Source of the DNA: a virus
Virus record (IMG/VR): IMGVR_UViG_3300026311_000005
Location: 1-38,648 of that record
Reading direction: 5' to 3' (one strand)
Length of the DNA: 38,648 nucleotides
The position numbers and the translations under genes were made by a program. Below are positions 16,907 to 37,721 of this stretch, one piece after another. Every line of letters begins with the position of its first letter. The stretch's first letter is position 1. A model generated the notes under the pieces. It saw only the letters and a list, made by a program, of their open reading frames with translations, was not told the DNA's origin and ran no database searches.

Positions 16907-17053
16907 TCAGTCCTCAGTCTTCTTCTTTCGTACTCTCTTCACCTGCTCCGGCTCCGGGTCGGTGAGCTCCGCCGAAAGAAGGATCTCGGCAAGCCTGGTG
17001 TCGATGTCGGCCAGATCGTAATCTCCATAGGCCCAGGTAGATTCATATGCCAT
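16907..17053 (-). CDS. Small acidic protein (about 48 aa)
   Basis: Manual translation MAYESTWAYGDYDLADIDTRL...; ATG overlaps the upstream stop (TGATG). Confidence 0.25.
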   Translation of the reverse strand: MAYESTWAYGDYDLADIDTRLAEILLSAELTDPEPEQVKRVRKKKTED

Positions 17054-17328
17054 CAGTAGTCCCCCCGCAGGTCGTCCTCTTTGGCCTCGACTAGATCGAG
17101 CCGCTTCGCCTCAAGTGCCTGCTTGCTATCGAAACCCAGCCGCGCATACATCGGCATCGGGTTCTTCACCTTCTTGGTCTCCGGGACCTCACCGGTCTTC
17201 TCGTCCATCTCGGTGACGATCTCCACCTCGGAGTCGTCCGGAACTCCCGCCAACAGCACCACCATAGCCTCCGGGCAATCCCGTTCCAGCGCCACTCTGT
17301 CGTCCGGTGACAGGTGGGGCCAATGCAC
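17053..17328 (-). CDS. Hypothetical protein (91 aa)
   Basis: ORF track; position in a chain of overlapping genes. Confidence 0.3.
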   Translation of the reverse strand: MHWPHLSPDDRVALERDCPEAMVVLLAGVPDDSEVEIVTEMDEKTGEVPETKKVKNPMPMYARLGFDSKQALEAKRLDLVEAKEDDLRGDY

Positions 17329-17404
17329 GCCACGCCGCCTGAGTTCCGCCGCTGCCTGAGTCGAATCCGTAATACCGCCTCCTATGAGTCACCGTAATTT
17401 TTTT

Positions 17405-18484
17405 CTATACAGGCTCCGCGACCGCCCGAGCGCCGGCATCCGAATTCGCACCCCAGCGAGCGTGAGCCGCAACCCGACACCGCGAGCCGCAATACGAGCC
17501 GTAACCCCAATTGCCGCCCGCACGCAGCTTTACGTCTCCGGATGTACCCTGGCGTTGTATCGACCCCCGTGAGCCTGGGAGATCGAACCAAGACCACGCA
17601 GGATCTACCGTCGGATCTGTGAGTCCATCTATCCGGAAGCTCTGGTCAGCTAACCACTGGTACACGACCCCGCAACAGTCGATACATCCGCAGTTGGAGA
17701 TCATGCTCCGGCCCGCAGTGTCGAGATGGTGGCCGGTCGTGCCTGGATCTGCGGACCCGGCGATGTTCGTCTCCTCGTTCGATCCAGCTGCGAATAGTTG
17801 GAACTCTCGATCTGTCGGCAGCCTGCATCCGACAGCGCCGAGATCGTCCACGAAATCCATCCAGTCGCGAGTATCGGATATCGTGCCGCCGTTCACGCTG
17901 GCGGTGTTGACGCCCGTGCCCGATACCAGGTATATCCCGACCCAGATGTTAGCCTCCTCGCACCAAATCATTCCCTCCGGGGCGGCGATGCCCCTTGGCC
18001 GGTGCATCAGATCCCAGATCGATCCGCTCCGGTTGTCGCCGCAGTGGATGTCTCCGATCGCGTGATTCTTGAACGGGTGGCCCACTGGCAGATTCACCAT
18101 CGTCGCCGGGGTGCAGTGGAACCCCCCGATCTTTCGGGCGGTCGCGGCCGCATAACCGCTAGGAGTCGTAGAGTTGGCTGAAATCTTGATCGTAGGTGCC
18201 CGGCCGGTCGCTGGAACGCACGAGTACAGATAGAAATTTTTGCCGGCTCGGTTCGCCGGCGTCCTGTAATCGGTCCCGACGACGGTATCCCAGGTCGCTT
18301 CCAGCGCCAGATCTAGCTCGATCTGGTCGTCGAGGATGTACCCTTTCCCGCCGACGTTGACCTCAATCCCGTCAGCGGGCGACACTAGAACGTCCCGGTC
18401 GCCTGATTTCATCGACCACTTGTCGTCGATCCGCCGGACGTAGTGACCGGGTTTCGCGGCTAGATCGGGCTGGACGTAGATCAT
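17405..18484 (-). CDS. Structural-module protein with a C-terminal formylglycine-generating-enzyme-like (FGE-sulfatase type, C-type lectin fold) domain
   Basis: Motifs CRLPTDREFQLFAAGS (compare RLPTEAEWEYAARGG) and VKLRAGGNWGYGSYCGSRCRVAAHARWG...GAR (compare RGGSW...R.A.R...GFR). Confidence 0.5.
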   Translation of the reverse strand: MIYVQPDLAAKPGHYVRRIDDKWSMKSGDRDVLVSPADGIEVNVGGKGYILDDQIELDLALEATWDTVVGTDYRTPANRAGKNFYLYSCVPATGRAPTIKISANSTTPSGYAAATARKIGGFHCTPATMVNLPVGHPFKNHAIGDIHCGDNRSGSIWDLMHRPRGIAAPEGMIWCEEANIWVGIYLVSGTGVNTASVNGGTISDTRDWMDFVDDLGAVGCRLPTDREFQLFAAGSNEETNIAGSADPGTTGHHLDTAGRSMISNCGCIDCCGVVYQWLADQSFRIDGLTDPTVDPAWSWFDLPGSRGSIQRQGTSGDVKLRAGGNWGYGSYCGSRCRVAAHARWGANSDAGARAVAEPV

Positions 18485-18906
18485 GCTACGTCCTCCACGT
18501 AGTAGCTGACGCCGCCGGTGATCCGATCGGCGGATACAGCGTCTAGCACCAGTGCCTCATTCGTCCCGAGGTTGATCGGGATATTCGGGGACAGCTCAAT
18601 TGCCGAGAACTGTAGCGTCATGATCGTGGTCGATCCTGATTTGACGGCCACTTCGACGTTGGCCAGCGAGGTCAGGACGATCGATGTGATCCGAATACGT
18701 TTTCCGGCTCCTGGTGCTGGGACGATCGTCTGAGCTGACCCGGACGAGAAATCTATCGCAACGTGGCTGAGGGAGGGCGGGTCGATAGAACTGATTTTCC
18801 CGTCATCGTCCACCATGAGGGGGACGAGATCTCCGCCCACTGTCCGGCCATATGCCACCTTCGCACCGATCCGTCCGCCGTATACGATTTCTTCGTCTGC
18901 CATCAT
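18481..18906 (-). CDS. Hypothetical head-module protein (141 aa), possibly a decoration protein
   Basis: ORF track; 4-nt overlap with the downstream gene. Confidence 0.35.
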   Translation of the reverse strand: MMADEEIVYGGRIGAKVAYGRTVGGDLVPLMVDDDGKISSIDPPSLSHVAIDFSSGSAQTIVPAPGAGKRIRITSIVLTSLANVEVAVKSGSTTIMTLQFSAIELSPNIPINLGTNEALVLDAVSADRITGGVSYYVEDVA

Positions 18907-19061
18907 TCCTCCAGGATCTCGATCGTCCCCTCTTCAGCCATCAGGTCCAGGAGCGCATCGTCTAGGTAGATCCTAGCCTCGTCATACGGGACGATCTCGC
19001 CTTCATCGAAGACGTTGCCGCCCCTAATCGACGTCCGTCGGTTGAACCTCACGCGCCTCAT
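18903..19061 (-). CDS. Small protein (about 52 aa)
   Basis: Manual translation MRRVRFNRRTSIRGGNVFDEGEIVPYDEARIYLDDALLDLMAEEGTIEILEE with GGAGG upstream; stop overlaps the next ATG. Confidence 0.25.
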   Translation of the reverse strand: MRRVRFNRRTSIRGGNVFDEGEIVPYDEARIYLDDALLDLMAEEGTIEILEE

Positions 19062-19151
19062 CCGGGGCCTCCTTCTTTTTCCGGGATCGCTTCACGGGTT
19101 CGGGCCTAGGTTCGGGGGCGGGCTCTTCCGCCCCGTTCCTTGGATACCAGG

Positions 19152-19676
19152 TCATCCGCTCGTCTCCAGCACGGCGATGCGGGCGGCGAGCTCATCGAGG
19201 ATCGCTGATATCGACTCGTTCGACGTGACGTTCGTCACCGCCGAGAAGTTCCCAATTTCTCCATATTGTGTGGTCGCGTTGGTCCAGAGATCGAGCACGT
19301 CTCCATCGAGTTCGTTGATCGCTGCGGCGACATCGTTGGCCGTAGTGGTGATATTCGCGATATCTCCGAGATAGTCATAGATGGTGGTAGTGTCCGAAGA
19401 AGCGATCGTTCCGCCGACGCTGAGGTTGCCGCTCAGGTACGCCCCGCCGTCGGAGTATATGTCGCCCACGACATTGACGTCTCCCTCCACGTCCTGGTCT
19501 CCGACGACGGTATGGTTTCCCCCGATATACCCGTCCCCGGATATATTGAGGCCCGCCCCAATGAAGTAGCCGGAGGTCGTGTAGTTGGTGGACCGAGGAT
19601 ACCATGAAGACTGAGAGGCGGCCGCCCCGATCAGGAGGGCCGCCGTTACGATGATTGCGACTAGTTCGCGTTTCAT
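19152..19676 (-). CDS. Secreted or membrane-anchored protein (174 aa), unusually rich in N-x-S/T sequons
   Basis: Signal-like N-terminus MKRELVAIIVTAALLIGAAAS; nine N-x-S/T sequons; GGAGTGAGGAG upstream; immediately after the capsid gene. Confidence 0.45.
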   Translation of the reverse strand: MKRELVAIIVTAALLIGAAASQSSWYPRSTNYTTSGYFIGAGLNISGDGYIGGNHTVVGDQDVEGDVNVVGDIYSDGGAYLSGNLSVGGTIASSDTTTIYDYLGDIANITTTANDVAAAINELDGDVLDLWTNATTQYGEIGNFSAVTNVTSNESISAILDELAARIAVLETSG

Positions 19677-21212: not shown

Positions 21213-21237
21213 TTACGGCGACGGTTGCCGTATGTGA

Positions 21238-22620
21238 TTATGAGCCGGGCATGAACATTTCGCCCGCGTTCTGAGTTCGGAGCATTTCAAGCGCGTCCTG
21301 AAGCGACGCGCCTTCGAGATGGTAGAGCATCCGGAGCGCTTGTTCGTCCCAGATGAGGCCCTGGGACTTGAGGAGCGCCACATTAGCGACCGTCTCCTTG
21401 AAGTCCTCGGGGAGGCCGTCTTGCCATTGAATCCCGATCGATTCCAGCTTCTCGGCCCCGGTGGACCCCCGCGCGGCTTCAAATGCCGTGAACGTCTGGA
21501 GCTCGGCTCGAATGATGGGATCGACGACGAGCTTGAGCCGGTCCACCTTCTTCAAGGGGACGAAAAGCATCAATCGGAGAGCCGTCCCGGATATTTGGGC
21601 TCCGAGTTCAGCAGGCTCAAAACAAGCGGCGCAAGTCTCGGATATGATGTAGAGCTGCCGGATTAGGGCGTCAATTTCGGCGAACGCCCCGGAGAGCTGC
21701 CCGTCCCATGTGACGTACCCGGGCGCGGCTTTGCCTTCCTCCACCGCGAAAGCCTTCCGCTTCCCGTCGAAAACCCAGGCCCCCGATTCGGTCTTGATGA
21801 ACGCACCCGAATCCTCGTTCGCGTAGAACATCGGCTCGGAGTGGACGTCCAGGATCCGCCCTATTCGCGTCAAACGGGCTTCCATCCGCTTGACGATCGA
21901 ATCCAGGTCTTTGTAATCGTCGATCAGTTTCCCGCTTGAGGTGTGTAAGTTCCGAACCTCAAATATTAGAGGTTGATCGACGCCCGTCTCTTCGATCGTC
22001 GGGGCCTCCCCCCCGCCCATGATATAGCCCGAAGCCGAGACGACGTACTCGCGGGTCTCGATTTGGCCGGGGCGGTGGATGCGAACTCGGAGCTTTCGCT
22101 GCTGGATGTGATCGACGTATCCGAGATCTTCGAGCCAGGCGACGACGTGCTCTTTGGTTCGCCCGTATTCATCGACGACCCCGAAATATCGGCCGGGGTG
22201 GACGACCTGCAGCTTGACCATCCCATCCTCCATATAGCCCTCGATGAAACCATGCCCGAACCGCGACACGTCGATCTGGCGAGCGTGCTGGAGCTTCCAG
22301 TATTCGGTTCGGTCGATGAAGGCCGAAAGGTACTTCTGCTTTTTGGATTCGGGGTCTTCGTCTCCGATGGCGCGTGGGATCTCCCCGAACAGGAAGTCGG
22401 CCCAGAGCGTCGATATTCGGCGATGTAGGTTGAGGATGAGAATGATTTTGTTGTACTCGGCCGTCTGGCTGGAGAAGAGGTCGAGAAGCGCCCGGAAGAC
22501 TTTCGTGTGCTCCCCATCGAAAAGGTGTTCGTTCTCTTCGTACCTCTGGAGCCGGTCCTTTTCCGATTCCGGTGGCCAGGGTTGGCCGACGGCGAGCGCG
22601 GCTTCAAGATCTCGAATCAT
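21238..22620 (-). CDS. Portal protein (460 aa)
   Basis: Size and position directly after the large terminase with a 4-nt overlap. Confidence 0.8.
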   Translation of the reverse strand: MIRDLEAALAVGQPWPPESEKDRLQRYEENEHLFDGEHTKVFRALLDLFSSQTAEYNKIILILNLHRRISTLWADFLFGEIPRAIGDEDPESKKQKYLSAFIDRTEYWKLQHARQIDVSRFGHGFIEGYMEDGMVKLQVVHPGRYFGVVDEYGRTKEHVVAWLEDLGYVDHIQQRKLRVRIHRPGQIETREYVVSASGYIMGGGEAPTIEETGVDQPLIFEVRNLHTSSGKLIDDYKDLDSIVKRMEARLTRIGRILDVHSEPMFYANEDSGAFIKTESGAWVFDGKRKAFAVEEGKAAPGYVTWDGQLSGAFAEIDALIRQLYIISETCAACFEPAELGAQISGTALRLMLFVPLKKVDRLKLVVDPIIRAELQTFTAFEAARGSTGAEKLESIGIQWQDGLPEDFKETVANVALLKSQGLIWDEQALRMLYHLEGASLQDALEMLRTQNAGEMFMPGS

Positions 22621-23951
22621 ATAATCCTCATCTGCCTAAGTTGTTTTGCGGCTTCCCTCGCAGCGTAGCGGTTGCCGTCGCATATATGATCAGGAGATCC
22701 CGATCCGCCCTTGATGTACATATCGATTCCTCTCTCTTGCTGCCTCTGATCCCAAAGGAGGTCATTGAACCCCCATATCGTCTTTTCGCATTTTTCGTAA
22801 ACCTTGAGTTTGCCCGTCGTGAAGAGGGTTGCGATATCTTCCAGGCCCGGCATGATCGCGTTGTCGGCGGCCCGGACGTGCGATAGATGCTGATATTTAG
22901 ACTGCTTTATCTCGCGGATGAATCCCGCCTCCTCCGGGGGTACCAGGATCTTCGCGGCGACGGGCGATCCGTTCCAGTAGCAAAGCCGGGCGATGTCCTC
23001 GATATATTCGTGGTTGACCTTCTGTTTGTGCTCTTTGACCGAATCCCAGTAGAACTCCCGGATGATATACCAGACCCCGCCCGACAAACCCCACAACGTC
23101 GCGGCGAAGGGGTTCGCGGTTCCGTAGTCGGCACCGACGAGGTACATGGTGAAGTGGTCCGGAAGAGTCGAGACGACGTAACCCGCCGACGGGTCTGGAT
23201 CGAAGAATCCGAAGACGCGCCCCTCGGCGGCGACCCAAAGACCCTCCACCCAGCGACGATACCAGATCGTCCCCGGCGCATACATCGATTTGATCCAAGC
23301 CTTGTACTCGTCGGAGAGATGGGGGTTGTCCTCCATCGTGAAATGGTAGAGCTTTGCCCGGATGCCCGGATCGTCGGCCCTCTCGACGATCTGACGGTGG
23401 AACCAGTGATTAGGGTTTTCGGGGTTCATCGTCATGATCGCTTTGGCCCCCGGGATTCGGAGACGGGACAAGGCCATCATGAAGAACGACTCCGGCCAGG
23501 TCGTCACCTCGTCGCCGTACCAGGCGTATAACGTTTTGCCCCTGATCTTAGATTCTGACTTGGAATCGTTGGCCCCGTAGATCCTGATCTTGCGGTCGTA
23601 GAGGTAGACGATCCCTCTGCCCCGGTTCTCTGAATACTTCGATCCCAGGAACTCGGCGAGCGGATCGAGGACGTTGGCTTCCAAGGTCCTCTCCGTCTTC
23701 CCGATCATGGCGAGCGGATAATGTTTCGGGGTCCTTTCGACGAAGGCAGCCCAAGCCTGTGCGCTGGTGACGGTCTTCCCCGACGAGACGGAGCCCCAAA
23801 GGGCGTATAGCTTATGATCTCCATCCAAGAAGTCAAACGCCATCTGGCGGTGCTTTTGCATCACCGGATGATGGGGCATTTTCCAGCCGTCGTAACTCAT
23901 CGAAAGCGGCTGCGATACTTCCGCGCTCGTCGTCATCGTCATCTGATCCAC
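22617..23951 (-). CDS. terL: Terminase large subunit
   Basis: Walker A motif GSVSSGKT near the N-terminus and overall terminase ATPase/nuclease layout; true start is probably an internal ATG (23843-23879) because the track start overlaps the small-subunit gene by 119 nt. Confidence 0.9.
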   Translation of the reverse strand: MDQMTMTTSAEVSQPLSMSYDGWKMPHHPVMQKHRQMAFDFLDGDHKLYALWGSVSSGKTVTSAQAWAAFVERTPKHYPLAMIGKTERTLEANVLDPLAEFLGSKYSENRGRGIVYLYDRKIRIYGANDSKSESKIRGKTLYAWYGDEVTTWPESFFMMALSRLRIPGAKAIMTMNPENPNHWFHRQIVERADDPGIRAKLYHFTMEDNPHLSDEYKAWIKSMYAPGTIWYRRWVEGLWVAAEGRVFGFFDPDPSAGYVVSTLPDHFTMYLVGADYGTANPFAATLWGLSGGVWYIIREFYWDSVKEHKQKVNHEYIEDIARLCYWNGSPVAAKILVPPEEAGFIREIKQSKYQHLSHVRAADNAIMPGLEDIATLFTTGKLKVYEKCEKTIWGFNDLLWDQRQQERGIDMYIKGGSGSPDHICDGNRYAAREAAKQLRQMRII

Positions 23952-24342
23952 CAGTCTCTTTCCGTCTTTGTTCCAGGAGCCGCTCCACCGCCGACGTCCA
24001 CTCCATCATGCCTTTAGGGTATCGGGATCTTGGCAAAATCGCTTTCAGCGTCGAGAGACCTTCATCGAGTAGGGTGAGCCGCTCTTCGGGGCCGAAGGTT
24101 GAAAAATCAATCTCCGCGATAGTTTCAGGTTTCGGGGTGGTAACCGTAGGTTGATAACCTTTTTTCGGAGGGCGGCCTTTGCCTTTGCGAGAATACCCTT
24201 CCTTCTTCGCGATTCTTGAGACCGTCGGCTTCTTCCCGCCATCGCCTAATCGCTTTGCAGCGATCTCTTCAAACGAAAGCCGTCCCTCTCGGAGATCCTC
24301 AATAATAGCGTTTCGGACTTCCGGAGGAAGAGGCGGCGGCAT
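23833..24342 (-). CDS. Putative terminase small subunit (169 aa)
   Basis: Position directly upstream of the large terminase; N-terminal helix-turn-helix-like segment, basic middle, acidic tail. Confidence 0.5.
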   Translation of the reverse strand: MPPPLPPEVRNAIIEDLREGRLSFEEIAAKRLGDGGKKPTVSRIAKKEGYSRKGKGRPPKKGYQPTVTTPKPETIAEIDFSTFGPEERLTLLDEGLSTLKAILPRSRYPKGMMEWTSAVERLLEQRRKETGGSDDDDDERGSIAAAFDELRRLENAPSSGDAKAPPDGV

Positions 24343-24351
24343 GTCATCAGT

Positions 24352-24651
24352 TCACCTTTCATGTCTGAATTTGGATTTTCGACCCACAAATCGGCCCCAT
24401 CGGGCAATGTCCCGCTCGGAAGGTTCCGAAGGCTGGTAGATCTCCCTCGGCCTCATCCCGCACGTAGGACATCCTCCGTTCTGGAGGTCCCAGAAGATTA
24501 TTTTACGGCAACGAGGACATATAAAATCAAGGATCTCCAGCCTCGCGCCAAAAACGGGCTCCCAGTGGGGAGATGTCGGCGGCGAGGGCTGGACTACCAG
24601 CCCCCTGGGGTCTTGCTTACCGTCCGGTGGCCCGACGGGGTTCAGAATCAC
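24352..24651 (-). CDS. Small zinc-ribbon protein (99 aa)
   Basis: Paired Cys motifs CPRC...CPTC; GTG start. Confidence 0.4.
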   Translation of the reverse strand: MILNPVGPPDGKQDPRGLVVQPSPPTSPHWEPVFGARLEILDFICPRCRKIIFWDLQNGGCPTCGMRPREIYQPSEPSERDIARWGRFVGRKSKFRHER

Positions 24652-24654
24652 TGC

Positions 24655-24690
24655 CTGTATATAACATCGTTACGATATAAATACTTTTCG
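24655..24690 (-). promoter_or_regulatory. AT-rich putative promoter ahead of the packaging/structural gene block
   Basis: TATA-like octamers (TTATATAC, ATTTATAT on the minus strand) within about 10-32 nt of the first start codon, in otherwise GC-rich DNA. Confidence 0.3.
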
Positions 24691-24805
24691 TCTAAATGCC
24701 TCTGTTGGAGGCGGATGGCGTGGCAGCGGCGGCACAAGAGCACGCCGCCACGTCGCCTCATCTCGGACTCGTCCACCGAGCGCATACACCCCCAGCAGTA
24801 GGCGA

Positions 24806-25033
24806 TCATTCATGCCCCGGCCAATGGGCCACCGGCTGGCGTTGATAGCGGCGGGGCTTCTTGATGCCGTGGACCTTGCCCCGCCAGTATTGGACCGCCT
24901 TGGCATAGCACCCGTTGCCGACGATGTCGGCTATCTCCTGGTCTGTCAGGCCCTCGGCGACTCGGGCCGCCACCCACCGGCGGTCCGTCAGGAGGGGGTA
25001 TTTCACCCGCCTCGGATATTCTCCGGATGGCAT
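24806..25033 (-). CDS. Small helix-turn-helix DNA-binding protein (75 aa)
   Basis: Segment LTDQEIADIVG resembling sigma-70 region 4 / LuxR-type HTH; GGGAGA 4 nt upstream. Confidence 0.45.
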   Translation of the reverse strand: MPSGEYPRRVKYPLLTDRRWVAARVAEGLTDQEIADIVGNGCYAKAVQYWRGKVHGIKKPRRYQRQPVAHWPGHE

Positions 25034-25567
25034 TAGTCTCCCTCGTAGAGATCGTCGATCTCTTGGACGAAGCTCATCACAACCACCTCGCCAGCATCGG
25101 GCCGATCAGGAGAAGGCCCGGCTCGACCCCCAGCCTTGCCGCCAGGGGCTCCACACGAGCTCTCCAGAAGCTTTCGTCGCCCTGGTCCATCTCCCGCCGC
25201 CCCCGGAGCATCCAGGCCCTCTGAAGGGCCGTAATCTCGTCCTCGGTGACGGGGGGGCGGGAGAAGTCCACCCGGCAGGAGCCGCCTTCGCAGGCGGCGC
25301 CGAAATCCGAGAGGGTGGTCATCTCCTCGCCCCCCTCTTTCGCTCGCCCCTCTCGGTCTGGGGCTCGCCGTATTCGATCGAATGGACCCGGCAGTACCGG
25401 GACCATGCCATCCTCTGCGACCGGCATCCTTCGATGATGCACTTGTTTGCCGTGTCGATCCGGGGCCTCATTTCTTCCATCCCCATTGCGGCCCGGTGTC
25501 CGGGCGCTCCAGCCGTTCGGCGATCTCTCGCAGCTCCCCGTCGATCTTGTCAAATCTGTCCATCTCG

Positions 25568-25819
25568 TCACCTCACAAAATCCATCGCTTCCATCTTCTT
25601 TTGCCAGAGCCAATCGGGGATCTCGATCGTCCCGCCTTCCAGCTTAATCTGGCTTTTTGGGAGCCAATAGCCGATTTTCTTGACGTCCATCCCGTCGGCT
25701 ACATGGACGACCTCCAGCAGCAGCCCCTTCTCGGTCTCGGCTCCGATCCGGTGAGTCGTCGATACCCGGACGCCTTCCAGGTTGATCGACGCCTTCTCAG
25801 TCAGTTGGAATATCACCAT
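25568..25819 (-). CDS. Hypothetical protein (83 aa)
   Basis: ORF track; followed by a micro-ORF with a strong GAGGTGA motif. Confidence 0.3.
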   Translation of the reverse strand: MVIFQLTEKASINLEGVRVSTTHRIGAETEKGLLLEVVHVADGMDVKKIGYWLPKSQIKLEGGTIEIPDWLWQKKMEAMDFVR

Positions 25820-26081
25820 TTAGAGCCTCCGCGAAGATGCGCCAGTTTATGCCGCGCCGCCAGACCACTCCCGTTTGGGAACCGTTCCGGACCTTCTGGA
25901 TTATGCCATCCTCCTTGAGCCGGATGGTATCCCGGCCCCGGGGCGGGTGATTGAGATCCCGCATCCGAAACTCGCCAACGGGCATTTCGAGGACCGCCAA
26001 ATCAAGTCCCCTCTCTTTCAGTACCTCGGCGTGACGCCGGGCCATCGCCGGATTTCTGTATATTCCACCAGGTCGTGACAT
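25797..26081 (-). CDS. Hypothetical protein (94 aa)
   Basis: Start taken as the ATG at 26081 with GGGAG upstream (ORF track start 26123 is TTG). Confidence 0.35.
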   Translation of the reverse strand: MSRPGGIYRNPAMARRHAEVLKERGLDLAVLEMPVGEFRMRDLNHPPRGRDTIRLKEDGIIQKVRNGSQTGVVWRRGINWRIFAEALNGDIPTD

Positions 26082-26129
26082 ATCTCCCTCTCTTTCACAT
26101 ATTTTTAGGCTATAATAATCCAAAACATA

Positions 26130-26326
26130 GTAAGATCTTACTTTTACTTATCCACGCTTGTAAAGCGCGGACATGTAAACATCTTACTTATTCGCTTTTC
26201 TCTCTGTATCTATCCTCCTTCCTCCAACTAACCACCTATCCAAAAACACCCGAAATCACGAGCATTTTGTAGTTAGCTGGAACCCCTTTAGTAAAGGATC
26301 GCTCAAAAGTAAAAGTAAGATCTTAC
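26130..26326. promoter_or_regulatory. AT-rich control region bounded by perfect inverted 18-bp elements, each containing the 12-bp palindrome GTAAGATCTTAC
   Basis: GTAAGATCTTACTTTTAC at 26130-26147 and its exact reverse complement at 26309-26326; degenerate third site near 26175-26188; TATAAT-like and polypyrimidine tracts between them. Confidence 0.5.
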
Positions 26327-26333
26327 AACTTAT

Positions 26334-26813
26334 TCACCAATCTACACCCTCCGATCCTTGCCAAAGTGGAACCTTTGCCCTCGCCAATTCGACGAGATGG
26401 TCCCGATAATCCTGAGTAATTCGAACTTGCTTTCCGTTGCCCCGACCCCGCGCCGATTCGATGATGTACTTATCGGGCTGAGCCGAAAGCGATTTGGCAA
26501 AATGTGTCATGTTCTGGCGACGATTCTTGCCCATATCGAGAAGCTTTCCTGCGTCCTCGAACGATATCGCCCTTGGGAATCGTTCAAGAAGAAGAGAATC
26601 GATTTTCGACAGTCGGCCTTTGGCGATAGCAGAGTTGGAGGGCCGAAGGGTTCCTGTCTCAAGCCGAGATAGCCTTTTCCGGTCTAGCGCTCGTTCCAGC
26701 GCCACCTCTTCCCGGAGAGCATCTATCTCGGCTTGCATTGCCCTTCTCATTTCTTCCATATCCGACTTAAGGCTTTCGATGGCGGCCCGTATAACGTCAT
26801 CAGATTCGCCCAA
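26334..26813 (-). CDS. Hypothetical protein (159 aa), possible regulator
   Basis: ORF track (TTG start); N-terminal coiled-coil-like region. Confidence 0.35.
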   Translation of the reverse strand: MGESDDVIRAAIESLKSDMEEMRRAMQAEIDALREEVALERALDRKRLSRLETGTLRPSNSAIAKGRLSKIDSLLLERFPRAISFEDAGKLLDMGKNRRQNMTHFAKSLSAQPDKYIIESARGRGNGKQVRITQDYRDHLVELARAKVPLWQGSEGVDW

Positions 26814-26826
26814 AACGACCGCCTCT

Positions 26827-26952
26827 TCACGCGCCCCCGTCCCTCATCGCTTCGGCGAGATCCAGCACCCTTTCAAGACAGTCGCCGATGGTATCGCTTG
26901 CATCTCCGAACTTTGCCAGCCGGGCCTTATCTTTAATCCGGACTCGGATCAT
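26827..26952 (-). CDS. Small protein, paralogue 1 (41 aa)
   Basis: Manual translation MIRVRIKDKARLAKFGDASDTIGDCLERVLDLAEAMRDGGA; last 44 nt identical to the paralogue at 27301. Confidence 0.35.
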   Translation of the reverse strand: MIRVRIKDKARLAKFGDASDTIGDCLERVLDLAEAMRDGGA

Positions 26953-27094
26953 AGTCGTCTCCATGCTAGATAGCAACGCGCGTATTGCTTATAAAGATAA
27001 CGGTATCGCGCCATGTGGCAACGCATGTTCCCTGCTATTGCCAATTGCAAGTTCAGGGCGGGGAGTAGTCACTCAGATTCCTCTGCATCCAAAT

Positions 27095-27298
27095 TCATCG
27101 CCGCCTCTTCACGCCCCGCCCGCCCTCGCCGGGTTCACGTACGCCACTCCAGTACTTGTGGCGGTATTCCGTTTCTAGCCTCTCGACTTCGACGAACTTT
27201 GCAAGAGCCCGGCTAGCGACAGCGATATCCTCCCATTCGTCGGCCTCGGCGATAACATGGCACAGAGCCATCACGATTCGTCGGGTGGTGGGTTCCAT
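27095..27298 (-). CDS. Hypothetical acidic protein (about 67 aa)
   Basis: ORF track 27095..27304; ATG at 27298 lies 3 nt after the upstream stop. Confidence 0.3.
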   Translation of the reverse strand: MEPTTRRIVMALCHVIAEADEWEDIAVASRALAKFVEVERLETEYRHKYWSGVREPGEGGRGVKRRR

Positions 27299-27300
27299 CG

Positions 27301-27444
27301 TCACGCGCCCCCGTCCCTCATCGCTTCGGCGAGATCCAGCACCCGCGCCAAACAGTCGGCCATCGAATCGGAAGCGTTCCCGAAGTTGGCGAGCCGGGCG
27401 TGATCGGCCCTATTCACCCGAATGAGTATTTTATCATCTGACAT
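27301..27444 (-). CDS. Small protein, paralogue 2 (47 aa)
   Basis: Manual translation MSDDKILIRVNRADHARLANFGNASDSMADCLARVLDLAEAMRDGGA; TATA-like TTAATA about 25 nt upstream. Confidence 0.35.
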   Translation of the reverse strand: MSDDKILIRVNRADHARLANFGNASDSMADCLARVLDLAEAMRDGGA

Positions 27445-27535
27445 CAAGGATAGTGAGCCCTCAAAGTATTAATATCTTATCCTTCGGTTTATGTCGTAAA
27501 CTACTTATATAACGAATACAACTAAGGGATATGGC

Positions 27536-27672
27536 GTGTCGCGTCGAGTCGAGTCAGGTCCGGTCGTGGCAGTCGCGTCGAGTCAGGTCGGGTCGGGTCG
27601 GGTCGTGGCAGTCGAGTCGCGTCAGGTCATGTCGAGTCGCGTCGAGTCCAGTCGGGTCCGGTCGTGGCAGTC
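27536..27672. repeat. Pentanucleotide array 1: about 27 tandem NNGTC units in three blocks, each ending in GTGGCAGTC
   Basis: Read directly: GTGTC GCGTC GAGTC GAGTC AGGTC CGGTC GTGGCAGTC ...; 5-bp periodicity, six GAGTC units. Confidence 0.8.
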
Positions 27673-27696
27673 TAACCAAAATGGAGTTGAGAAAAA

Positions 27697-28332
27697 GTGG
27701 CAGCAAAAGCAAAAGCGCCCGCCCAGAGCGGGCCTATAACCCTGAAAAGGATCGAGTTGGAAACGGTTGTCGTCCCGATCGTGGGGACCTCTGAGCTGAT
27801 CGTTCACAAGTGGAGCGATAAAGCCAAGCGCCAGATGCTAGACAAGCAGATGAAACCGGGGACCAGATCAAAGAAGGAAGCAAAAGACCCGGTAGCCGAC
27901 TACGAGGCGTCGAAATATAAGACGCCCGAAGGCAAAGATGCGATGGTGACGACCGCCTTCAAGAAGGCGATGGTTGACGCCCTCCGCTACTTCGACGGTG
28001 TGAGTATGGTCCTGGGAAAGACCGCCTTCTTTGTAGAGGGCGAGTACGTCGAGCTGGAGGGCGAGCCCCGGATGAGAGAAGACATGGTGAGGCTGGACGG
28101 CGGTGGGTCTGCTGACATCCGATACCGGGCCGGGTATCCTGAATGGAAGACGAAGCTCACCATCACCTACGCAAAGGATATCCTCACTATGGAGTCGGTC
28201 CTGTCCCTGGTAGAAGCAGCGGGACAGACCCAGGGCGTTGGCGAATGGAGGCCGTCGTCCAAGAAGACCACCGGTCCCTTCGGTCGGTTCACGATCGACA
28301 CGTCCCGGAAAATTGAGGTGATCACTGCATGA
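27697..28332 (+). CDS. Hypothetical protein (211 aa), first gene of the repeat-flanked plus-strand cassette
   Basis: ORF track; GTG start with GGAG about 11 nt upstream; no recognisable motif. Confidence 0.5.
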   Translation: MAAKAKAPAQSGPITLKRIELETVVVPIVGTSELIVHKWSDKAKRQMLDKQMKPGTRSKKEAKDPVADYEASKYKTPEGKDAMVTTAFKKAMVDALRYFDGVSMVLGKTAFFVEGEYVELEGEPRMREDMVRLDGGGSADIRYRAGYPEWKTKLTITYAKDILTMESVLSLVEAAGQTQGVGEWRPSSKKTTGPFGRFTIDTSRKIEVITA

Positions 28333-28853
28333 CCAAAATGGTATATGCCTGGAGAGAGGGGCGGAGCGCCAGCCCCTACCTTTCCAACGTATCCCCCCAG
28401 GTGGTCGGTGAAGAGCTGGAGAAGGTCCGAGAACAGGGGGGGGGGATGATCTTTCCCCGTGCCGTCATCGATCACGCCCGACCATCCGACTCGCCCCTCC
28501 ATTCATGCTTTGAATGGAACGACACGGAAGCCGCCGAGAAGTTCCGAATCGTCCAGGCGAGGGGGGTCATCAAGTCTGTCGAGATCGTCGAGATCAAAGG
28601 CAAACCACTCCCCTCCCCCATCGTAGCCAACGTCAGCGTGACGCGCCGGGCCGTTGTGCCGGGCGATCCAAGGATCAGGTATTATGAGAGCACTCCTCTC
28701 GCCCTCCAGGACCCGGAGCTTCGGGACCAGGTACTCCAGAAGGCTCTTAGGGAGCTGGAATCCTGGCGGGAACGATACGACGCCTTTACCGAGTTCAGTC
28801 TGGTCTTCGGCTCGATAGAAGCCATCCAGAAAAAGATAAGATCTTCAGCCTGA
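28329..28853 (+). CDS. Hypothetical protein (174 aa), second gene of the cassette
   Basis: ORF track; 4-nt overlap with the upstream gene. Confidence 0.5.
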   Translation: MTKMVYAWREGRSASPYLSNVSPQVVGEELEKVREQGGGMIFPRAVIDHARPSDSPLHSCFEWNDTEAAEKFRIVQARGVIKSVEIVEIKGKPLPSPIVANVSVTRRAVVPGDPRIRYYESTPLALQDPELRDQVLQKALRELESWRERYDAFTEFSLVFGSIEAIQKKIRSSA

Positions 28854-28860
28854 TCTTATC
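28835..28860 (+). other. Hairpin GATAAGATC, 8-nt loop, GATCTTATC overlapping the cassette stop codon
   Basis: Read directly; arms contain TAAGATC, the half-site of the 26130/26315 palindrome. Confidence 0.3.
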
Positions 28861-28868
28861 TTTTCATG

Positions 28869-29025
28869 GCGGTCGGGTCAGGTCGTGTCGGGTCCGGTCG
28901 AGTCGAGTCGTGTCAAGGCAGTCGGGTCCGGTCGGGTCGAGTCATGTCTCGTCACGTCGAGTCAAGTCAAGGCAGTCGCGTCGTGTCGTGTCATGTCACG
29001 TCGTGTCGCGTCTGGTCGTGGCAGC
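28869..29025. repeat. Pentanucleotide array 2: about 26 tandem NNGTC units in three blocks punctuated by AAGGCAGTC, AAGGCAGTC and GTGGCAGCC
   Basis: Read directly; same unit type and orientation as array 1. Confidence 0.8.
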
Positions 29026-29060
29026 CGTGGCGTGTCTTGCTGCCACTATTCTATTTTTAT
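29017..29060 (+). terminator. Putative intrinsic terminator of the plus-strand cassette
   Basis: Stem GTGGCAGC, 13-nt loop, GCTGCCAC, followed by TATTCTATTTTTAT. Confidence 0.45.
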
Positions 29061-29170
29061 GATTCAAAAAAGAACGTGCTCTGAATTGTGATCTCACATT
29101 TCGCGCCACATTTATCGCGCCATGACTCAAAAGAATGAGTCACCGCGCATTCGGAAAAGCACGCGTGCAT

Positions 29171-30529
29171 TCATGGCGCGAAGTCCTCCAGCGTCGCCGG
29201 GGGCCTCTCCGCCGCCGCCAGTCTAGCCTCGGCGATCTCGACGTACTCAGGCTCAAGCTCGATCCCGATATATCCGAATCCCTCCTCTTTCGCGGCGACG
29301 AGGGTCGTACCCGATCCGGCGAATGGGTCCAGGACCGTCCCGCCTGGGGGGGTGACGAGCCGGACTAGGTAGCGCATCAGCTTGAGGGGCTTGACCGTGG
29401 GGTGGTGGTTTTGGCGATGGGTTTTGCCTCGGAGATATGGGTTGTCAATCGGGGTGTTTCGTCCATCGTCTGTGATCCGATCTGGCATCCCCTCCAGCCC
29501 CCGGTTCCGTTCGGCCCGGCTCGCCTTCGCTACATATACGATCGGGTCCGGGTCTATCTGGAGGAAGAAGCGGGCGGCGGTGCCTTCTCTATCATGCCAT
29601 GTATGTTGCCCCCCCTTCAACCCGAACATACCACCCGGATCAGCTGATACTTTACCGCGGCCTTCTACAGAACCGCCGCTCTTCAGATGCCCCGATTGCT
29701 CCGCTATGAGCCGTACCGCACATCCTTCGACGCAGTCCTCCCCTCGCCGAACGCACCCCGGCGCGTGGCCGAGGATGAGGTTCGCAGGCCAGCGGCCAGA
29801 AGGGTTCTGGACGAACTCCGACCGATTCGTGTCTTTATATCCGCTTGGATATGTTCTGTTTTTTTGAACATGCCGGCCAGACGAAAGGATATCTCCCGTC
29901 CCGATCCGGCACCCGTCCACATTCACCGCGCCGCAACCCCACCGGAGGACGTTCGCCGCAACCGTCTTCTCTGATAACGGTTTGCGAGCCATCACGATCG
30001 GTTCATGGGCGGGCTTAAGAGCGGTCCCCCACCCGTCCCATTGGCGGGCGGCATCGGTGGCGGGGGCGGTGATGTCGACAGTTTTGCGGCTACCATCCGC
30101 TGGCAATGCGGGACCGTTTGCATATTGACTACCTCTGCCACCTGTTGCATTATTCCCCCAAACTTCTGATTGCCCTATCACGTCCCGCTCGGCCCCAGCC
30201 GCCCGGTCGATCGCCTTCGACACGTCCAGACTTTTCGGGAATCCTGATCCATATACCCAAGAGATACAGTCCCTGATCTCGAGTCCCGCGTCCTCGATCG
30301 CGCAAGCCAGCCGATGATAGGTCCGAGTCCCTCCGAACGCCAGCAGATAGCCGCCGGGCTTCAGGACGCGCCACGCCTGCCTCCAGACCTCCTGATCGTA
30401 GGCTATCCCTGACCCATCCCATTTCTTTCCCATGAACCCCAGCTCATAAGGCGGATCACAGACGATCGCGTCGATAGAGTTCTCCTCCATTTCGGCCATC
30501 CGTTCACGGCAATCTCCCTGTAATATCAT
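29171..30529 (-). CDS. DNA methyltransferase, beta-class amino-methyltransferase (N6-adenine or N4-cytosine), orphan
   Basis: Motif IV IVCDPPYE near the N-terminus and motif I VLDPFAGSGTT near the C-terminus; Cys-rich middle region; no adjacent restriction endonuclease. Confidence 0.85.
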   Translation of the reverse strand: MILQGDCRERMAEMEENSIDAIVCDPPYELGFMGKKWDGSGIAYDQEVWRQAWRVLKPGGYLLAFGGTRTYHRLACAIEDAGLEIRDCISWVYGSGFPKSLDVSKAIDRAAGAERDVIGQSEVWGNNATGGRGSQYANGPALPADGSRKTVDITAPATDAARQWDGWGTALKPAHEPIVMARKPLSEKTVAANVLRWGCGAVNVDGCRIGTGDILSSGRHVQKNRTYPSGYKDTNRSEFVQNPSGRWPANLILGHAPGCVRRGEDCVEGCAVRLIAEQSGHLKSGGSVEGRGKVSADPGGMFGLKGGQHTWHDREGTAARFFLQIDPDPIVYVAKASRAERNRGLEGMPDRITDDGRNTPIDNPYLRGKTHRQNHHPTVKPLKLMRYLVRLVTPPGGTVLDPFAGSGTTLVAAKEEGFGYIGIELEPEYVEIAEARLAAAERPPATLEDFAP

Positions 30530-32259
30530 CCGAAGCCCTCCAGCGTCGCCGGGGCCTCGAAGCTAAACAGGCTTTCCTGTTCATGATTCTTAAGCCCGGT
30601 GTCCACATCGCCGTATATCGATTTGATATTTTTGGGATCACCCTTATAAAATACCAGAACGTTCTGGTGAGTCTTCCCAAGCTTCCGGTATCCCTGAAAC
30701 TGCTTATTCACCCGGATAGGGAGCGACCCCACCGACGTGATCAGGACGGCCTCATTATAAAGGGTCGCCCCGGCGTCCTGGAAGGCTTCGATGGTATCCC
30801 CCACGAAGTTACGATAGAAGCCCCGCCGATCCCGGATATCCCCCACGACAAAGCAGGCGAATCGATCCGGCTTCAGCATCCCCACCGACGCCGCGACGAT
30901 GCCCCGATAGGTCTTGAGGAAGCCCTCATAATCCATGGTGGATAAGTCGCGGGGGTCGTCTGAGTATCTTTCGAGGTCGAAATATGGAGGACATGAAAAG
31001 ATGAGATCGTACCGACCGGGGGCGATGGCGGCGATGTCCTGGCTATCCCCGGCGATCCATCTGGGGTGGGTTCCGCCGTGTTTAATCGTGTCATTGTATC
31101 GAAGCTTCCGCCAGCTGTCCTTTGGCATGTATGAAACGAGGTCCCCGCCGCCTGCGTCGAAATGATCGCATATCCGCCCCGCCTCCTCGTCCCCGAAAAT
31201 ACGATCGAGAGACGCTCGGAAAGCCCGATACGCTGGAATCCTTTCTCCCTGGTTGTAGCATTTCAAGAGCTTATATCGGTTACGTACTATCAAGGTGTTA
31301 TTATCATTTAGCGTAAATGGGGACGCGATGCACCCGAAGGGCTTGTCTGTGGTAAAATGGAGTCCACACAGATCCTCGTCCGTCTTAAATGGGCATCGCC
31401 CGGAAGTTTCAAGCAGGCCGCCTTTTATAGACCCGCCCCGGCCCCGGATCGTCTCCTCCTCGTCTGGGTGGATGGTTATGATGGTCCCGCTAGGCGAGGT
31501 AGATGATTGACAGCAGCTCGCGTGACAAACTGATCGGATATAATCCGGATCGCATCCATGAAACGGTGTCCTGGCCATCGCGGCCGATACCTTGATCTGG
31601 ATCTTTCCATTATCAGACGGAGGACATTTCAACCCTATAAAATCCCATTGATCCTTATTCGCGGCTATCTGCTCCGGTCGGAGATCGACGCCGGTGTACT
31701 GGAAGCCCGTCAACGCCGCCACGATGCCCCGGACGGACCCGCCCGCGAAGGGGTCGAGGACATGGCCGCCGGGGGGCGTGAACCATCGATATATCAACTC
31801 ACAGAGGACGGGATCAAATATCGACGTGCCGCTCTGTGGCTGAGCCGCAAGAATCTTGCGGCTCACTTCGTCTAATTCGTCATCGGGCCGATTGCCCGTC
31901 ACCCAAGTCAATCGATCGCCTATCGGCCTCCCCGCGCCGTCTCCTCTCTCCCGGTGGGAGTAATCGCACGCGGGACGAGGACTCCCACCGGGAGACGCGT
32001 TCTTATAGTGGCTTCTGGCTTGCTCGGAGAAGCCGAGCAAGCCATTTTTATATTTTTTCGAGCCGTCGAATCCTATCTCCCCGTTTTGGCGGCTTATCGT
32101 GGCGGCGTCGGAATAGACATGCACACCGACGCCGCCACGTCCTATCTCGCTCTTGATCCCCTTCGCCAACCAGAACCTCTTCCTCTCCTGCCAATAGCCC
32201 TGCCGGGCGTCGAGGACGGAGAACGGCGGCATCACGAATTTATCGGATAACGTTCCCAC
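30526..32259 (-). CDS. DNA methyltransferase with a long Cys-rich insertion between motif I and motif IV, orphan
   Basis: N-terminal MPPFSVLDARQGYWQERKRFW, motif I VLDPFAGGS, motif IV-like FSCPPYFD; about 270 aa between them with many Cys; likely true start is the ATG at 32232. Confidence 0.75.
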   Translation of the reverse strand: MGTLSDKFVMPPFSVLDARQGYWQERKRFWLAKGIKSEIGRGGVGVHVYSDAATISRQNGEIGFDGSKKYKNGLLGFSEQARSHYKNASPGGSPRPACDYSHRERGDGAGRPIGDRLTWVTGNRPDDELDEVSRKILAAQPQSGTSIFDPVLCELIYRWFTPPGGHVLDPFAGGSVRGIVAALTGFQYTGVDLRPEQIAANKDQWDFIGLKCPPSDNGKIQIKVSAAMARTPFHGCDPDYIRSVCHASCCQSSTSPSGTIITIHPDEEETIRGRGGSIKGGLLETSGRCPFKTDEDLCGLHFTTDKPFGCIASPFTLNDNNTLIVRNRYKLLKCYNQGERIPAYRAFRASLDRIFGDEEAGRICDHFDAGGGDLVSYMPKDSWRKLRYNDTIKHGGTHPRWIAGDSQDIAAIAPGRYDLIFSCPPYFDLERYSDDPRDLSTMDYEGFLKTYRGIVAASVGMLKPDRFACFVVGDIRDRRGFYRNFVGDTIEAFQDAGATLYNEAVLITSVGSLPIRVNKQFQGYRKLGKTHQNVLVFYKGDPKNIKSIYGDVDTGLKNHEQESLFSFEAPATLEGFG

Positions 32260-32404
32260 GGCTGTCCACCTCGTCGATCTTCAGGACCATCGGCGACTTG
32301 AGCGCCCGGACTCCCTTGATCCAAGCTTCCGATAGGCTTTTCGCTTCGACTTCGACGGTATCGATAGATTCCTGTGAAGTGTAGATCTTCACGGCGTATA
32401 TCAT
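32240..32404 (-). CDS. Small protein (about 54 aa)
   Basis: Manual translation MIYAVKIYTSQESIDTVEVEAKSLSEAWIKG...; ATG overlaps the upstream stop (ATGA). Confidence 0.25.
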   Translation of the reverse strand: MIYAVKIYTSQESIDTVEVEAKSLSEAWIKGVRALKSPMVLKIDEVDSRGNVIR

Positions 32405-32694
32405 CCCAGCCCCTCCAAATACTCGATCATGGCCAGCCGTGCCTCCCTTTCGGGATCGGCGGCCCCCAAGATCCGTATCTCCGGGATGCCGATGCTGACC
32501 GTGAACTGCATCCCGTTCGGTCCCTCGAATAGCTCCGCCGCGCCGGTGATCCGGCCCTCGGCGGCGTCGATCAGCCGGGCCACGATCTCCTCATTCGACA
32601 CCCGTCGCCCCTCGGCGGCGGAGGCCCGGCGGCGGATCTCCGCGATCCGGGCTCGCGTCTCCTGGGAGACCTCGATGTACGGCGAGGAGGGCAT
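32401..32694 (-). CDS. Putative ribbon-helix-helix-like DNA-binding protein (97 aa) upstream of the methyltransferase pair
   Basis: N-terminal beta-strand plus helix pattern PYIEVSQETRARIAEIRRR...NEEIVARLIDA. Confidence 0.35.
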   Translation of the reverse strand: MPSSPYIEVSQETRARIAEIRRRASAAEGRRVSNEEIVARLIDAAEGRITGAAELFEGPNGMQFTVSIGIPEIRILGAADPEREARLAMIEYLEGLG

Positions 32695-32725
32695 CAGGGG
32701 GCCCCCTCTCGACTCCTCTGGGGGC

Positions 32726-32980
32726 TCACTGGCCCCCTTCGATCTCGTTCAGCCTGTGGCACATCTTCGAGTCCAGCTCCTCGATTTCATCGTCCTCGAA
32801 CTGGAGGTAGGGCATTGCCTGTAGGATCGCTTTCGATCTCCTCACGATGATTTCGATGAGAGCCTGTTCAGAGCCCAGCTCGTTCTTTCCCTCGATCTTT
32901 CCTACCTCTCTGATCGCCATCTGCGAGATCTCGCAGATCTTCATCAGGCTTTCCAGGGTTTCTGTCGTGGTTGGTATCAT
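32726..32980 (-). CDS. Hypothetical protein (about 84 aa)
   Basis: Internal ATG at 32980 with GAGAGGTG upstream; upstream part of the 140-aa track ORF judged spurious. Confidence 0.3.
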   Translation of the reverse strand: MIPTTTETLESLMKICEISQMAIREVGKIEGKNELGSEQALIEIIVRRSKAILQAMPYLQFEDDEIEELDSKMCHRLNEIEGGQ

Positions 32981-34596: not shown

Positions 34597-34604
34597 CGCC
34601 CCTC
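34587..34604. terminator. Hairpin between convergent operons (GAGGGG, loop, CCCCTC) followed by a T-tract on the plus strand
   Basis: Read directly; sits in the 12-nt gap between the stops at 34596 and 34609. Confidence 0.3.
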
Positions 34605-34608
34605 GCCG

Positions 34609-35798: not shown

Positions 35799-35805
35799 GA
35801 TCTCC

Positions 35806-37720: not shown

Positions 37721-37721
37721 T

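Follow-up and report, generated by a model that had tools for sequence, protein, structure and literature searches.

Candidate BRE/TATA core promoters in the genome of a head-tailed virus with a probable Methanothrix host

The viral genome, its relatives and its host

The segment shown above belongs to a 38,648-nucleotide stretch of viral DNA (IMG/VR record IMGVR_UViG_3300026311_000005), which we refer to as the window. It contains the junction of two small genes on the minus strand, together with an A/T-rich box and the purine tract next to it:

24352-24651, minus strand: 99-aa zinc-ribbon gene with a GTG start, a candidate leaderless first codon
24648-24809, minus strand: 53-aa CxxC...CxxC ORF with a weak Zn_ribbon_4 match, whose 3' end holds the BRE/TATA element
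24683-24675, minus strand: box TATTTATAT, 23 nt before GTG 24651
24684-24690, minus strand: BRE-like purine tract CGAAAAG, directly upstream of TATTTATAT

No in-frame start other than GTG 24651 lies upstream of the CPRC...CPTC motif of the 99-aa gene, and no Shine-Dalgarno match precedes this GTG. The 53-aa ORF overlaps on both sides, its ATG with an upstream stop (ATGA) and its TGA with GTG 24651 (GTGA). The sequence-only reading had placed a promoter-like box in 24652-24700; the box is indeed there, but the stretch is not intergenic, being the 3' end of the 53-aa ORF.

The window ends are identical over 127 bp, which indicates a circularly assembled genome of 38,521 unique bases; its G+C content is 58% and its non-coding share 6.1%. 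The main features of the wider genome are as follows:

26081 to 37229, across the assembly junction, minus strand: long structural/late unit of ~27 kb, starting at ATG 26081
14472-14978, minus strand: gene for a sheath-like (SH-like) protein, 75% identical to vir197_00031
16966-19500: Mtd-like region
847, wrapping to 37722: 548-aa collagen-like fibre gene, part of the long minus-strand unit
27301-27444, minus strand: 47-aa gene, preceded by ATATTAATA
29171-32259: two-methyltransferase block
33421-33576, plus strand: RHH/CopG gene (RHH_1 Pfam match)
35889-35987, plus strand: AbrB/MazE-like gene (Pfam match)

Among the products of the window are the HK97 capsid, the large terminase, the portal, the tape-measure protein and further tail proteins, with Pfam matches to Phage_capsid and Terminase_6N; the long minus-strand unit holds the genes for the small and large terminase, portal, scaffold, HK97 capsid, tail and tape measure. 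Short divergent units fill the other ~11 kb (26.1-37.3 kb), and the products of this regulatory region comprise small DNA-binding proteins (RHH, AbrB/MazE and two zinc-ribbon ORFs), two DNA methyltransferases and many ORFans. Two gene calls were rejected: for 32726-33148, homology to the vir515 promoter and leader places the start at ATG 32980, and ORF 27531-27794, which translates GTCGN repeats, was dismissed as non-coding. A Pfam search with ~35 non-structural or small window proteins returned only RHH, AbrB/MazE, HhH, methyltransferase and weak zinc-ribbon matches, and no archaea-specific replication or transcription protein. Since the tRNA scan and the Rfam search of the window yielded no tRNA genes and no Rfam matches, RNA genes offer no clue to the host; likewise, no tRNA or integrase in the window points to an attachment site.

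Archaeal-type promoters had been suggested on the strength of the boxes, with a bacterial host left open, and comparison with known archaeal tailed viruses points to an archaeal host, as the window is related to vir197 (g__Methanothrix) and to vir515 (Methanosarcinales). Its closest IMG/VR relatives (L055-L059) have large terminases that are 94-95% identical at the amino-acid level, and with L058 and L059 it shares 9-14 kb of DNA at 76-95% nucleotide identity (TerL 94% identical). L059 is vir197 (IMGVR_UViG_3300002446_000088; an encoded protein is 100% identical to vir197_00031), which has been described as a 36,211-bp, extrachromosomal, head-tailed virus with g__Methanothrix as host (Table S6, PMC11576556). 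The window has the same virion module as vir197 and a member of the same SH-like sheath protein family (75% identical), but is a different genome, ~2.3 kb longer. In the stretches of L058 and L059 that were compared (20 kb and 17 kb), nothing aligns with 16966-19500, with 29171-32259 or with much of the regulatory region, and the gene at 24357-24685 is replaced. With vir515, segments of 84-100% nucleotide identity are shared across the regulatory region (BLAST), including common regulatory cassettes such as the CCGACCGAAAGGTATATATCC promoter and leader; GenBank names 'Methanosarcinales' as the host of both vir515 and vir525. Methanothrix head-tailed viruses, among them vir197 and vir515 (BK063672), are reportedly gathered in a compendium by Medvedeva et al. 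In the phage collection the best DNA match was vir525 and the terminase matched vir515, these DNA and protein matches being only distant, to Gram-positive phages and two methanogen viruses, and not decisive alone.

Secreted SH-like proteins have been proposed as markers of viruses of sheathed archaea (PMC11576556). The product of 14472-14978 is also 29% identical (E = 8e-13) to the SH-like protein vir116_00048 of the Methanothrix virus vir116, and its homology search returned viral relatives only and no cellular sheath proteins. Named capsid homologues come from Methanothrix sp. MAGs (87% and 65% identical), Methanoperedens (69%) and a Pacearchaeota archaeon (48%), with bacterial-named homologues only at 47% identity or less, and a Methanothrix sp. 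MAG contributes a protein to the terminase cluster at 63% identity. Around the terminase-relative contigs and the capsid relative in a Methanothrix MAG the DNA is all viral and shows no integrated provirus. Judging by relatedness to published viruses, the host is almost certainly Methanothrix, a methanogenic archaeon, and the window would then be the complete genome of one of its head-tailed viruses and, on the same comparisons, a new relative of a published, uncultured virus group.

A/T boxes and adjoining purine tracts

Four A/T octamers had been reported upstream of the start codons at 24651, 27444, 35798 and 26081; all of them are present, on the minus strand and 22-29 nt away. Alongside the box at 24651, the elements considered here are:

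26119-26111, minus strand: box ATTATTATA, 29 nt before ATG 26081
27475-27467, minus strand: box ATATTAATA, 22 nt before ATG 27444
27499-27512, plus strand: promoter-like cassette AACTACTTATATAA, facing the plus-strand unit
33035-33049, minus strand: BRE+TATA element CGAAAGgTATATATC, 54 nt upstream of ATG 32980
33359-33372, minus strand: BRE+TATA element CGAAAGATATAAAT, back-to-back with the element at 33384
33384-33399, plus strand: BRE+TATA element GGAAAGgcTTAAATAC, 21-22 nt upstream of ATG 33421 (RHH/CopG) and absent from the sequence-only reading
35831-35824, minus strand: box (G)TATATATA(T), 25 nt before ATG 35798

The boxes are about 8 bp long and resemble TWTATATA or TTTAWATA (TATTTATA(T), ATATTAATA, TATATATA, ATTATTATA, CTTAAATA, TATATATC and ATATAAAT). 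Runs of at least eight consecutive A/T occur 43 times in the genome, 12 of them in non-coding DNA (binomial P = 7e-6). Four such runs precede a start codon by 20-30 nt, where 0.69 would be expected by chance (Poisson P = 0.005). The composite pattern CGAAAGGTATATAT, with at most three mismatches, occurs eight times compared to 1.9 +/- 1.25 in shuffled sequences, a number reached in 0 of 100 shuffles, although this comparison is to some degree circular, the pattern having come from the very sequence that was tested. In the upstream regions that lead units, the most enriched 5-mer is TATAT (seven of nine regions, 10% expected).

A purine-rich GAAAG/GAAGG element precedes three of the four reported boxes and three additional elements. 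The tract abuts the box at 24651 and at 35798 (GGGAAGG), as it does at the added elements of 33421 (GGAAAGG), 32980 (CGAAAGG) and 33359 (CGAAAG); for the 27444 box a CCGAAGG tract lies at 27487-27481, offset 5 nt upstream, and at the 26081 box there is no BRE-like tract. Relative to the start codons, the GAAAG tracts have their A's at about -35 to -33. In M. jannaschii, TATA boxes follow the consensus TWTATATA; the nine positions immediately ahead of them make up the BRE, with strong conservation at position -34 (PMC2699501). The window shares with methanogen core promoters (M. jannaschii and Methanolobus psychrophilus) an octamer of A/T that closely resembles TWTATATA and, at most of its elements, an adjoining purine/A-rich BRE on the upstream side whose A stands three positions ahead of the box. 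It also shares a spacing between box and start codon compatible with transcription that begins at the codon or just before it, and the coexistence with Shine-Dalgarno-led genes. Its BRE contains more G (GAAAGG/GAAGG) than the A-rich archaeal consensus.

Several relatives keep the element while the surrounding sequence changes, at the 24651, 35798, 33421 and 32980 sites. The 24651 box stays A/T-rich despite about five substitutions (ATATATATA in L057/L061 and ATATAAATA in L058/L059), with the site reading GGAAAGATATATATAC in the former pair and GGAAAGATATAAATAG in the latter. In L058 a second copy, AAAAGTATTTATAATA, is clearly intergenic and lies 20 nt ahead of another zinc-ribbon gene, which starts with GTG, and in L142, a contig of a Methanothrix MAG, GGGAAAGATATAAATA is found 25-26 nt before the gene that precedes the terminase. 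The gene that starts at ATG 35798 encodes 112 aa and is divergent from the AbrB/MazE-like gene; its counterpart in L136 encodes a 93% identical protein behind an upstream region that is otherwise unalignable, yet GTAAGCTATAAATAG stands 22-23 nt before the ATG; with L139 the shared part is limited to the promoter and the first 20 codons. Between box and ATG 35798 the tract TAATAGGG(A/G)GATC stays conserved despite differences in the upstream module. In vir515, the orthologue of the RHH gene (7881-8030, 60% identical) has GGGAAAGATAGATATATGA 20 nt before its ATG, and gene 9836-10045 has GGAAAGCTTAATATA at 22 nt. The 32980 element is conserved in vir515 (L001 7642-7656) and in L058 (2355-2369), 54-55 nt from the ATG, and the predicted leader of ~30-35 nt before ATG 32980 contains a GGGCGCGAAGCCC hairpin and a GAGGTG Shine-Dalgarno motif. 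The elements at 33359 and 33384 form a divergent pair.

The cassette at 27499-27512 faces a plus-strand unit of GTCGN repeats followed by gene 27697-28332, and the same cassette (AACTACTTATACT) is found 19-20 nt before the ATG of homologues of the 47-aa gene in L001, L057 and L141. An exact search of IMG/VR with the 19-nt promoter cassette gave one match only, because the pattern is too specific. The 26081 box, which heads the ~27-kb virion unit and is preceded by GTAAGATCTTAC palindromes, is the weakest case of the four, and its conservation is uninformative because the available relatives are 99% identical. That it could act as a weak, factor-dependent late promoter is a reasonable guess and should be taken as nothing further.

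Spacing to start codons and the implied leaders

The positions of such elements were examined in 241 non-identical upstream regions, each with at least 45 nt of non-coding DNA, from the window, its terminase relatives (L055-L101), vir515, L142, L049 and L052; these results depend on crude gene calls and on relatives whose hosts are themselves inferred. TATA-like runs are most often centred 24-27 nt ahead of the start codon, where 32 were counted compared to ~12 per 4-nt bin, and in the 43 regions that bear a box A is enriched at -35 to -33 and A/T at about -31 to -23. The oriented pattern, defined as RAR[GC], up to 2 nt and then a TATA-like octamer, gave 20 region-bin matches: eight in the bin 20-24 nt before the start (binomial P = 6e-6) and three in the bin at 55-59 nt. 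The motif search of upstream regions therefore supports the earlier observation of a preferred spacing, as oriented BRE+TATA elements pile up 20-24 nt from starts. With the pattern reversed, 0 of 13 matches fell in the 20-24 nt bin, and in bacterial prophage loci with related terminases (L004-L048; 363 upstream regions) 0 of 14 matches did so. The upstream regions of vir525 showed no clear shared motif, and this virus, which is of a different type, was left out. The close relatives are too similar for arguments of the covariation kind. We regard the sharp 20-24 nt spacing across the family, which would imply leaderless early transcripts, as modestly new.

In M. psychrophilus, a member of the Methanosarcinales, the distance between predicted BRE/TATA elements and the transcription start is ~19-22 nt, and ~16% of transcripts carry a leader of less than 10 nt (PMC5378194). 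With this spacing, a box that ends 20-25 nt before a start codon suggests a leaderless or nearly leaderless mRNA. In the regulatory units of the window the boxes end 22-25 nt before the start codons of the first genes, whose transcripts would therefore be leaderless or nearly so; in comparison to the ~16% in M. psychrophilus, several regulatory units of the window look leaderless. The conserved TAATAGGG(A/G)GATC tract counts against this reading at 35798, since its conservation is unexplained if it is not transcribed.

GGAGG-like motifs had also been noted before many genes, and this holds: a match to GGAGGTGATC that is exact over at least 5 nt precedes 19 of the 54 genes, and the aligned spacing of the genome's Shine-Dalgarno sites is 6-10 nt in most. 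Shine-Dalgarno motifs are no argument for a bacterial host, because methanogens use them widely; in M. jannaschii, a ribosome-binding site was found in 86 of 134 leaders (PMC2699501). G-rich tracts do occur between box and start codon, as GGGAGAT at 35798 and 26081 and as AAGG at 33421, at an aligned spacing of 1-2 nt, and ATG 27444 has no Shine-Dalgarno motif at normal spacing, with only a 4-nt GAGG at an aligned spacing of 14. The elements of the 55-nt class are the cases with a well-spaced Shine-Dalgarno motif.

Proposed mechanism and competing explanations

The archaeal promoter reading put forward earlier gains support from the BRE+TATA anatomy, the spacing to starts, the recurrence in relatives and the archaeal host. 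In our view the A/T octamers probably function as TATA boxes, within archaeal core promoters of a Methanothrix virus; indeed, with the window taken as a complete tailed-virus genome of Methanothrix, ordinary archaeal TATA-box promoters are what the boxes most likely represent. The use of BRE/TATA promoters by an archaeal virus is textbook, expected biology. We propose that the TATA box would be bound by the host TBP and the adjacent BRE (GAAAG/GAAGG, with its A ~3 nt upstream of the box) read by the host TFB, and that the archaeal RNA polymerase would start ~20-23 nt downstream of the box. The first genes of the regulatory units, i.e. those for the small zinc-ribbon proteins, the RHH protein and the 112-aa protein encoded divergently from the AbrB/MazE-like gene, would thus give transcripts that are leaderless or have leaders of a few nt. 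A second class of putative promoters, ~55 nt upstream, would produce a leader of ~30-35 nt with a hairpin and a Shine-Dalgarno motif, and genes inside the long operons would be translated from GAGGTGAT-type Shine-Dalgarno sites.

Several other explanations have to be weighed against these archaeal promoters. The virus might have a bacterial host from the same anaerobic communities, for example Dehalococcoidia/Chloroflexota, with the boxes serving as -10 elements and leaders of ~15-20 nt, which we consider highly improbable. Such a host is suggested by L003 (JALOAP010000476.1), a 3,052-bp contig that is 95-96% identical to window positions 21216-24267 and is filed in a 'Dehalococcoidia bacterium' MAG, and by terminase and capsid relatives, 30-47% identical, in phages of Firmicutes and Actinobacteria. 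L003, however, is short and viral from end to end, without host flank, so that its label derives from binning only, and it is probably a mis-binned viral contig; vir197, vir515, the SH-like protein and the named MAG proteins are independent links to Methanothrix. Like bacterial sigma-70 promoters (-35 TTGACA, -10 TATAAT), the window has a TA-rich, hexamer-like core upstream of genes, and some of its boxes contain TATAAT-like strings on the opposite strand. A scan of 23800-38648 for sigma-70-like sequences even gave 13 weak matches against 6.3 +/- 2.0 expected, but most of these are 9/12 matches inside genes, none of the 13 coincides with the four boxes, and the consensus scan of that region found no -35/-10 pair, 16-18 nt apart, at any of them. 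Unlike sigma-70 promoters, the boxes lack a -35 partner at 16-18 nt at all four sites and are abutted by a conserved purine tract. The GGGAGAT tract between box and ATG at 35798 and 26081 also speaks for a bacterial reading; with the G-rich tract at a spacing of 1-2 nt or the motif absent, however, the -10 reading leaves leaders without a usable ribosome-binding site at the spacing usual for this genome. The bacterial prophages with related terminases, moreover, show no BRE+TATA pile-up at 20-24 nt.

It is also conceivable, though we judge it unlikely, that the host is archaeal and the boxes are not active promoters, and are instead by-products of A/T composition, regulator sites or mosaic junctions. 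A/T-rich runs are enriched in the non-coding DNA of almost any genome, consensus and PWM matches are known to predict archaeal promoters poorly (PMC2699501), palindromic operator-like repeats adjoin some of the elements, and mosaic breakpoints fall right at them, for example at 24686 in L058/L059 and after the promoter and first codons shared by L139. Composition alone, however, does not explain why eight of 20 oriented matches lie at 20-24 nt and none of the reversed ones, and the adjacent GAAAG tract with an A at about -34 is left unexplained. Furthermore, exchange of the surrounding sequence leaves a TATA-like box at an unchanged distance, and an element is present at every divergent gene pair and unit start of the regulatory region.

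At 24652-24700 itself, the element may act as a promoter inside the long unit; alternatively, translational coupling may account for expression of the gene. On the latter account, which we find possible though rather doubtful, this stretch is plain C-terminal coding sequence of the 53-aa ORF, and the 99-aa gene would have no separate promoter, its expression depending on the transcript of the upstream operon and on termination-reinitiation at the GTGA overlap. The start/stop overlaps on both sides of the ORF fit this account, as does the location of the site within the long minus-strand unit that starts at 26081; the protein differences in L057/L061 are conservative or synonymous (in L057 D>E, K>R and L>I, plus one synonymous change). 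Against it, the segment 24641-24709 has ~35% G+C in a genome of 58% and matches the BRE+TATA composite used elsewhere, the ORF of L058/L059 ends inside the TATA box, and the element recurs in intergenic DNA of L058 as well as before the gene that precedes the terminase in L142; promoter and coding functions can, in addition, coexist.

Methanothrix, for which genetic tools are scarce, is a major acetate-using producer of methane in wetlands and digesters, and no virus of this genus is known to have been cultured. A promoter map derived from sequence provides a call of the host at domain level that is independent of MAG binning, and here it contradicts the Dehalococcoidia bin; it also delimits the transcription units of the virus and offers short candidate promoter parts for Methanothrix. 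The use of promoter type to overrule a MAG bin is modestly new, as is the coincidence of promoter cassettes with mosaic junctions.

The palindromic TATATATA (35824-35831) is situated between divergent genes, 25 nt from ATG 35798 on the minus strand and 57 nt from ATG 35889 on the plus strand, and is flanked by two BRE-like tracts, GGGGGAAGG on the minus strand (35840-35832) and CGATAG on the plus strand (35817-35822). We tentatively suggest, as a scenario with rather less than even chances, that this one box drives both divergent genes, that short portable BRE/TATA cassettes also serve as junctions for the exchange of genome modules and that, in this group of Methanothrix viruses, early or regulatory genes are expressed from them mainly as leaderless mRNAs. 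If so, TATATATA would be a compact bidirectional switch for the AbrB-like regulator and the 112-aa protein.

Repeat elements around the regulatory and virion transcription units

The genome of the virus carries several kinds of repeats, coding and non-coding, as follows.

27538-27668 and 28864-29036: non-coding GTCGN repeat arrays with 5- and 10-bp periodicity, GTCGAGTCGG-like
26827-26976 and 27301-27444, minus strand: two paralogous genes of 47-49 aa
26082-26333: non-coding region of 252 bp upstream of the virion operon

The GTCGN arrays lie on either side of a plus-strand two-gene unit (27697-28853). In two distantly related loci (L079 and L096), GTCAA/GTCAG repeats, similar to those of the window, are found upstream of homologues of the 211-aa gene. 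The arrays may be replication-origin iterons, or they may serve as a binding array for the protein encoded by the 211-aa gene. The two paralogous genes are contained within a repeat of approximately 108 nt with 81% identity between the copies, and one 44-nt stretch here matches vir515, a virus with the GenBank host ‘Methanosarcinales’, at 100%.

The region upstream of the virion operon contains perfect inverted arms of 20 nt each (26130-26149 and 26307-26326), both of which include the palindrome GTAAGATCTTAC, and a degenerate third copy is present at 26171-26189. A related GATAAGATC hairpin is located at 28826-28869. We propose the two arms, the degenerate copy and this hairpin as candidate operator sites.

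Sequences at and near start codons

35799-35822: tract (C)CnTAATAGGG(A/G)GATC, directly before ATG 35798
30526-32259: methyltransferase-like ORF of 577 aa, annotated with a GTG start

The tract before ATG 35798 is kept in L136, the related locus that encodes a 93% identical protein, despite replacement of the remaining upstream region. Similar AGGG/AAGG tracts precede the other start codons that lie close to a TATA-like box, and their spacing is unlike that of the Shine-Dalgarno sites of this genome, and is wrong for such sites. Within the N-terminal part of the methyltransferase-like ORF, the segment 32016-32060 carries on its plus strand a hairpin with a perfect 12-bp stem, followed by TTTTTATATT, and on its minus strand the BRE/TATA-like string CGAAAAaATATAAAA (a purine-rich tract with a TATA-like element). 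The GTG start annotated for this ORF may be wrong.

Virion genes and a related contig

847 wrapping to 37722, minus strand: collagen-like (GPxGPxG) fibre gene of 548 aa, spanning the assembly junction
14472-14978, minus strand: sheath-like (SH-like) protein gene of 168 aa, inside the virion module
17405-18484, minus strand: tail protein gene with an Mtd second domain, within the wider stretch 16966-19500
11031-11432 and 11264-11809, minus strand: two overlapping ORFs directly upstream of the tape-measure gene

The terminase-portal region (21216-24267) is 96% identical to L003 (JALOAP010000476.1), a 3,052-bp contig without host flanks, which was deposited in a MAG labelled ‘Dehalococcoidia bacterium’ and is probably a mis-binned fragment of a Methanothrix virus. 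The fibre gene contains a tandem duplication of 138 bp (tandem repeat 38244-38493). The sheath-like protein has a hydrophobic, signal-peptide-like segment at its N-terminus, and shares 75% and 29% identity with the SH-like proteins of the Methanothrix viruses vir197 and vir116, respectively.

The Mtd second domain is typical of the targets of diversity-generating retroelements. The tail gene carrying it has 73% DNA identity to a tail gene of vir525 (GenBank host ‘Methanosarcinales’), and that vir525 gene is adjoined by a reverse transcriptase; of the window proteins put through a Pfam scan, none proved to be a reverse transcriptase. The surrounding stretch, in its entirety, fails to align with close relatives. 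The two overlapping ORFs before the tape-measure gene have the layout that is usual for tail assembly chaperones whose synthesis involves programmed frameshifting.
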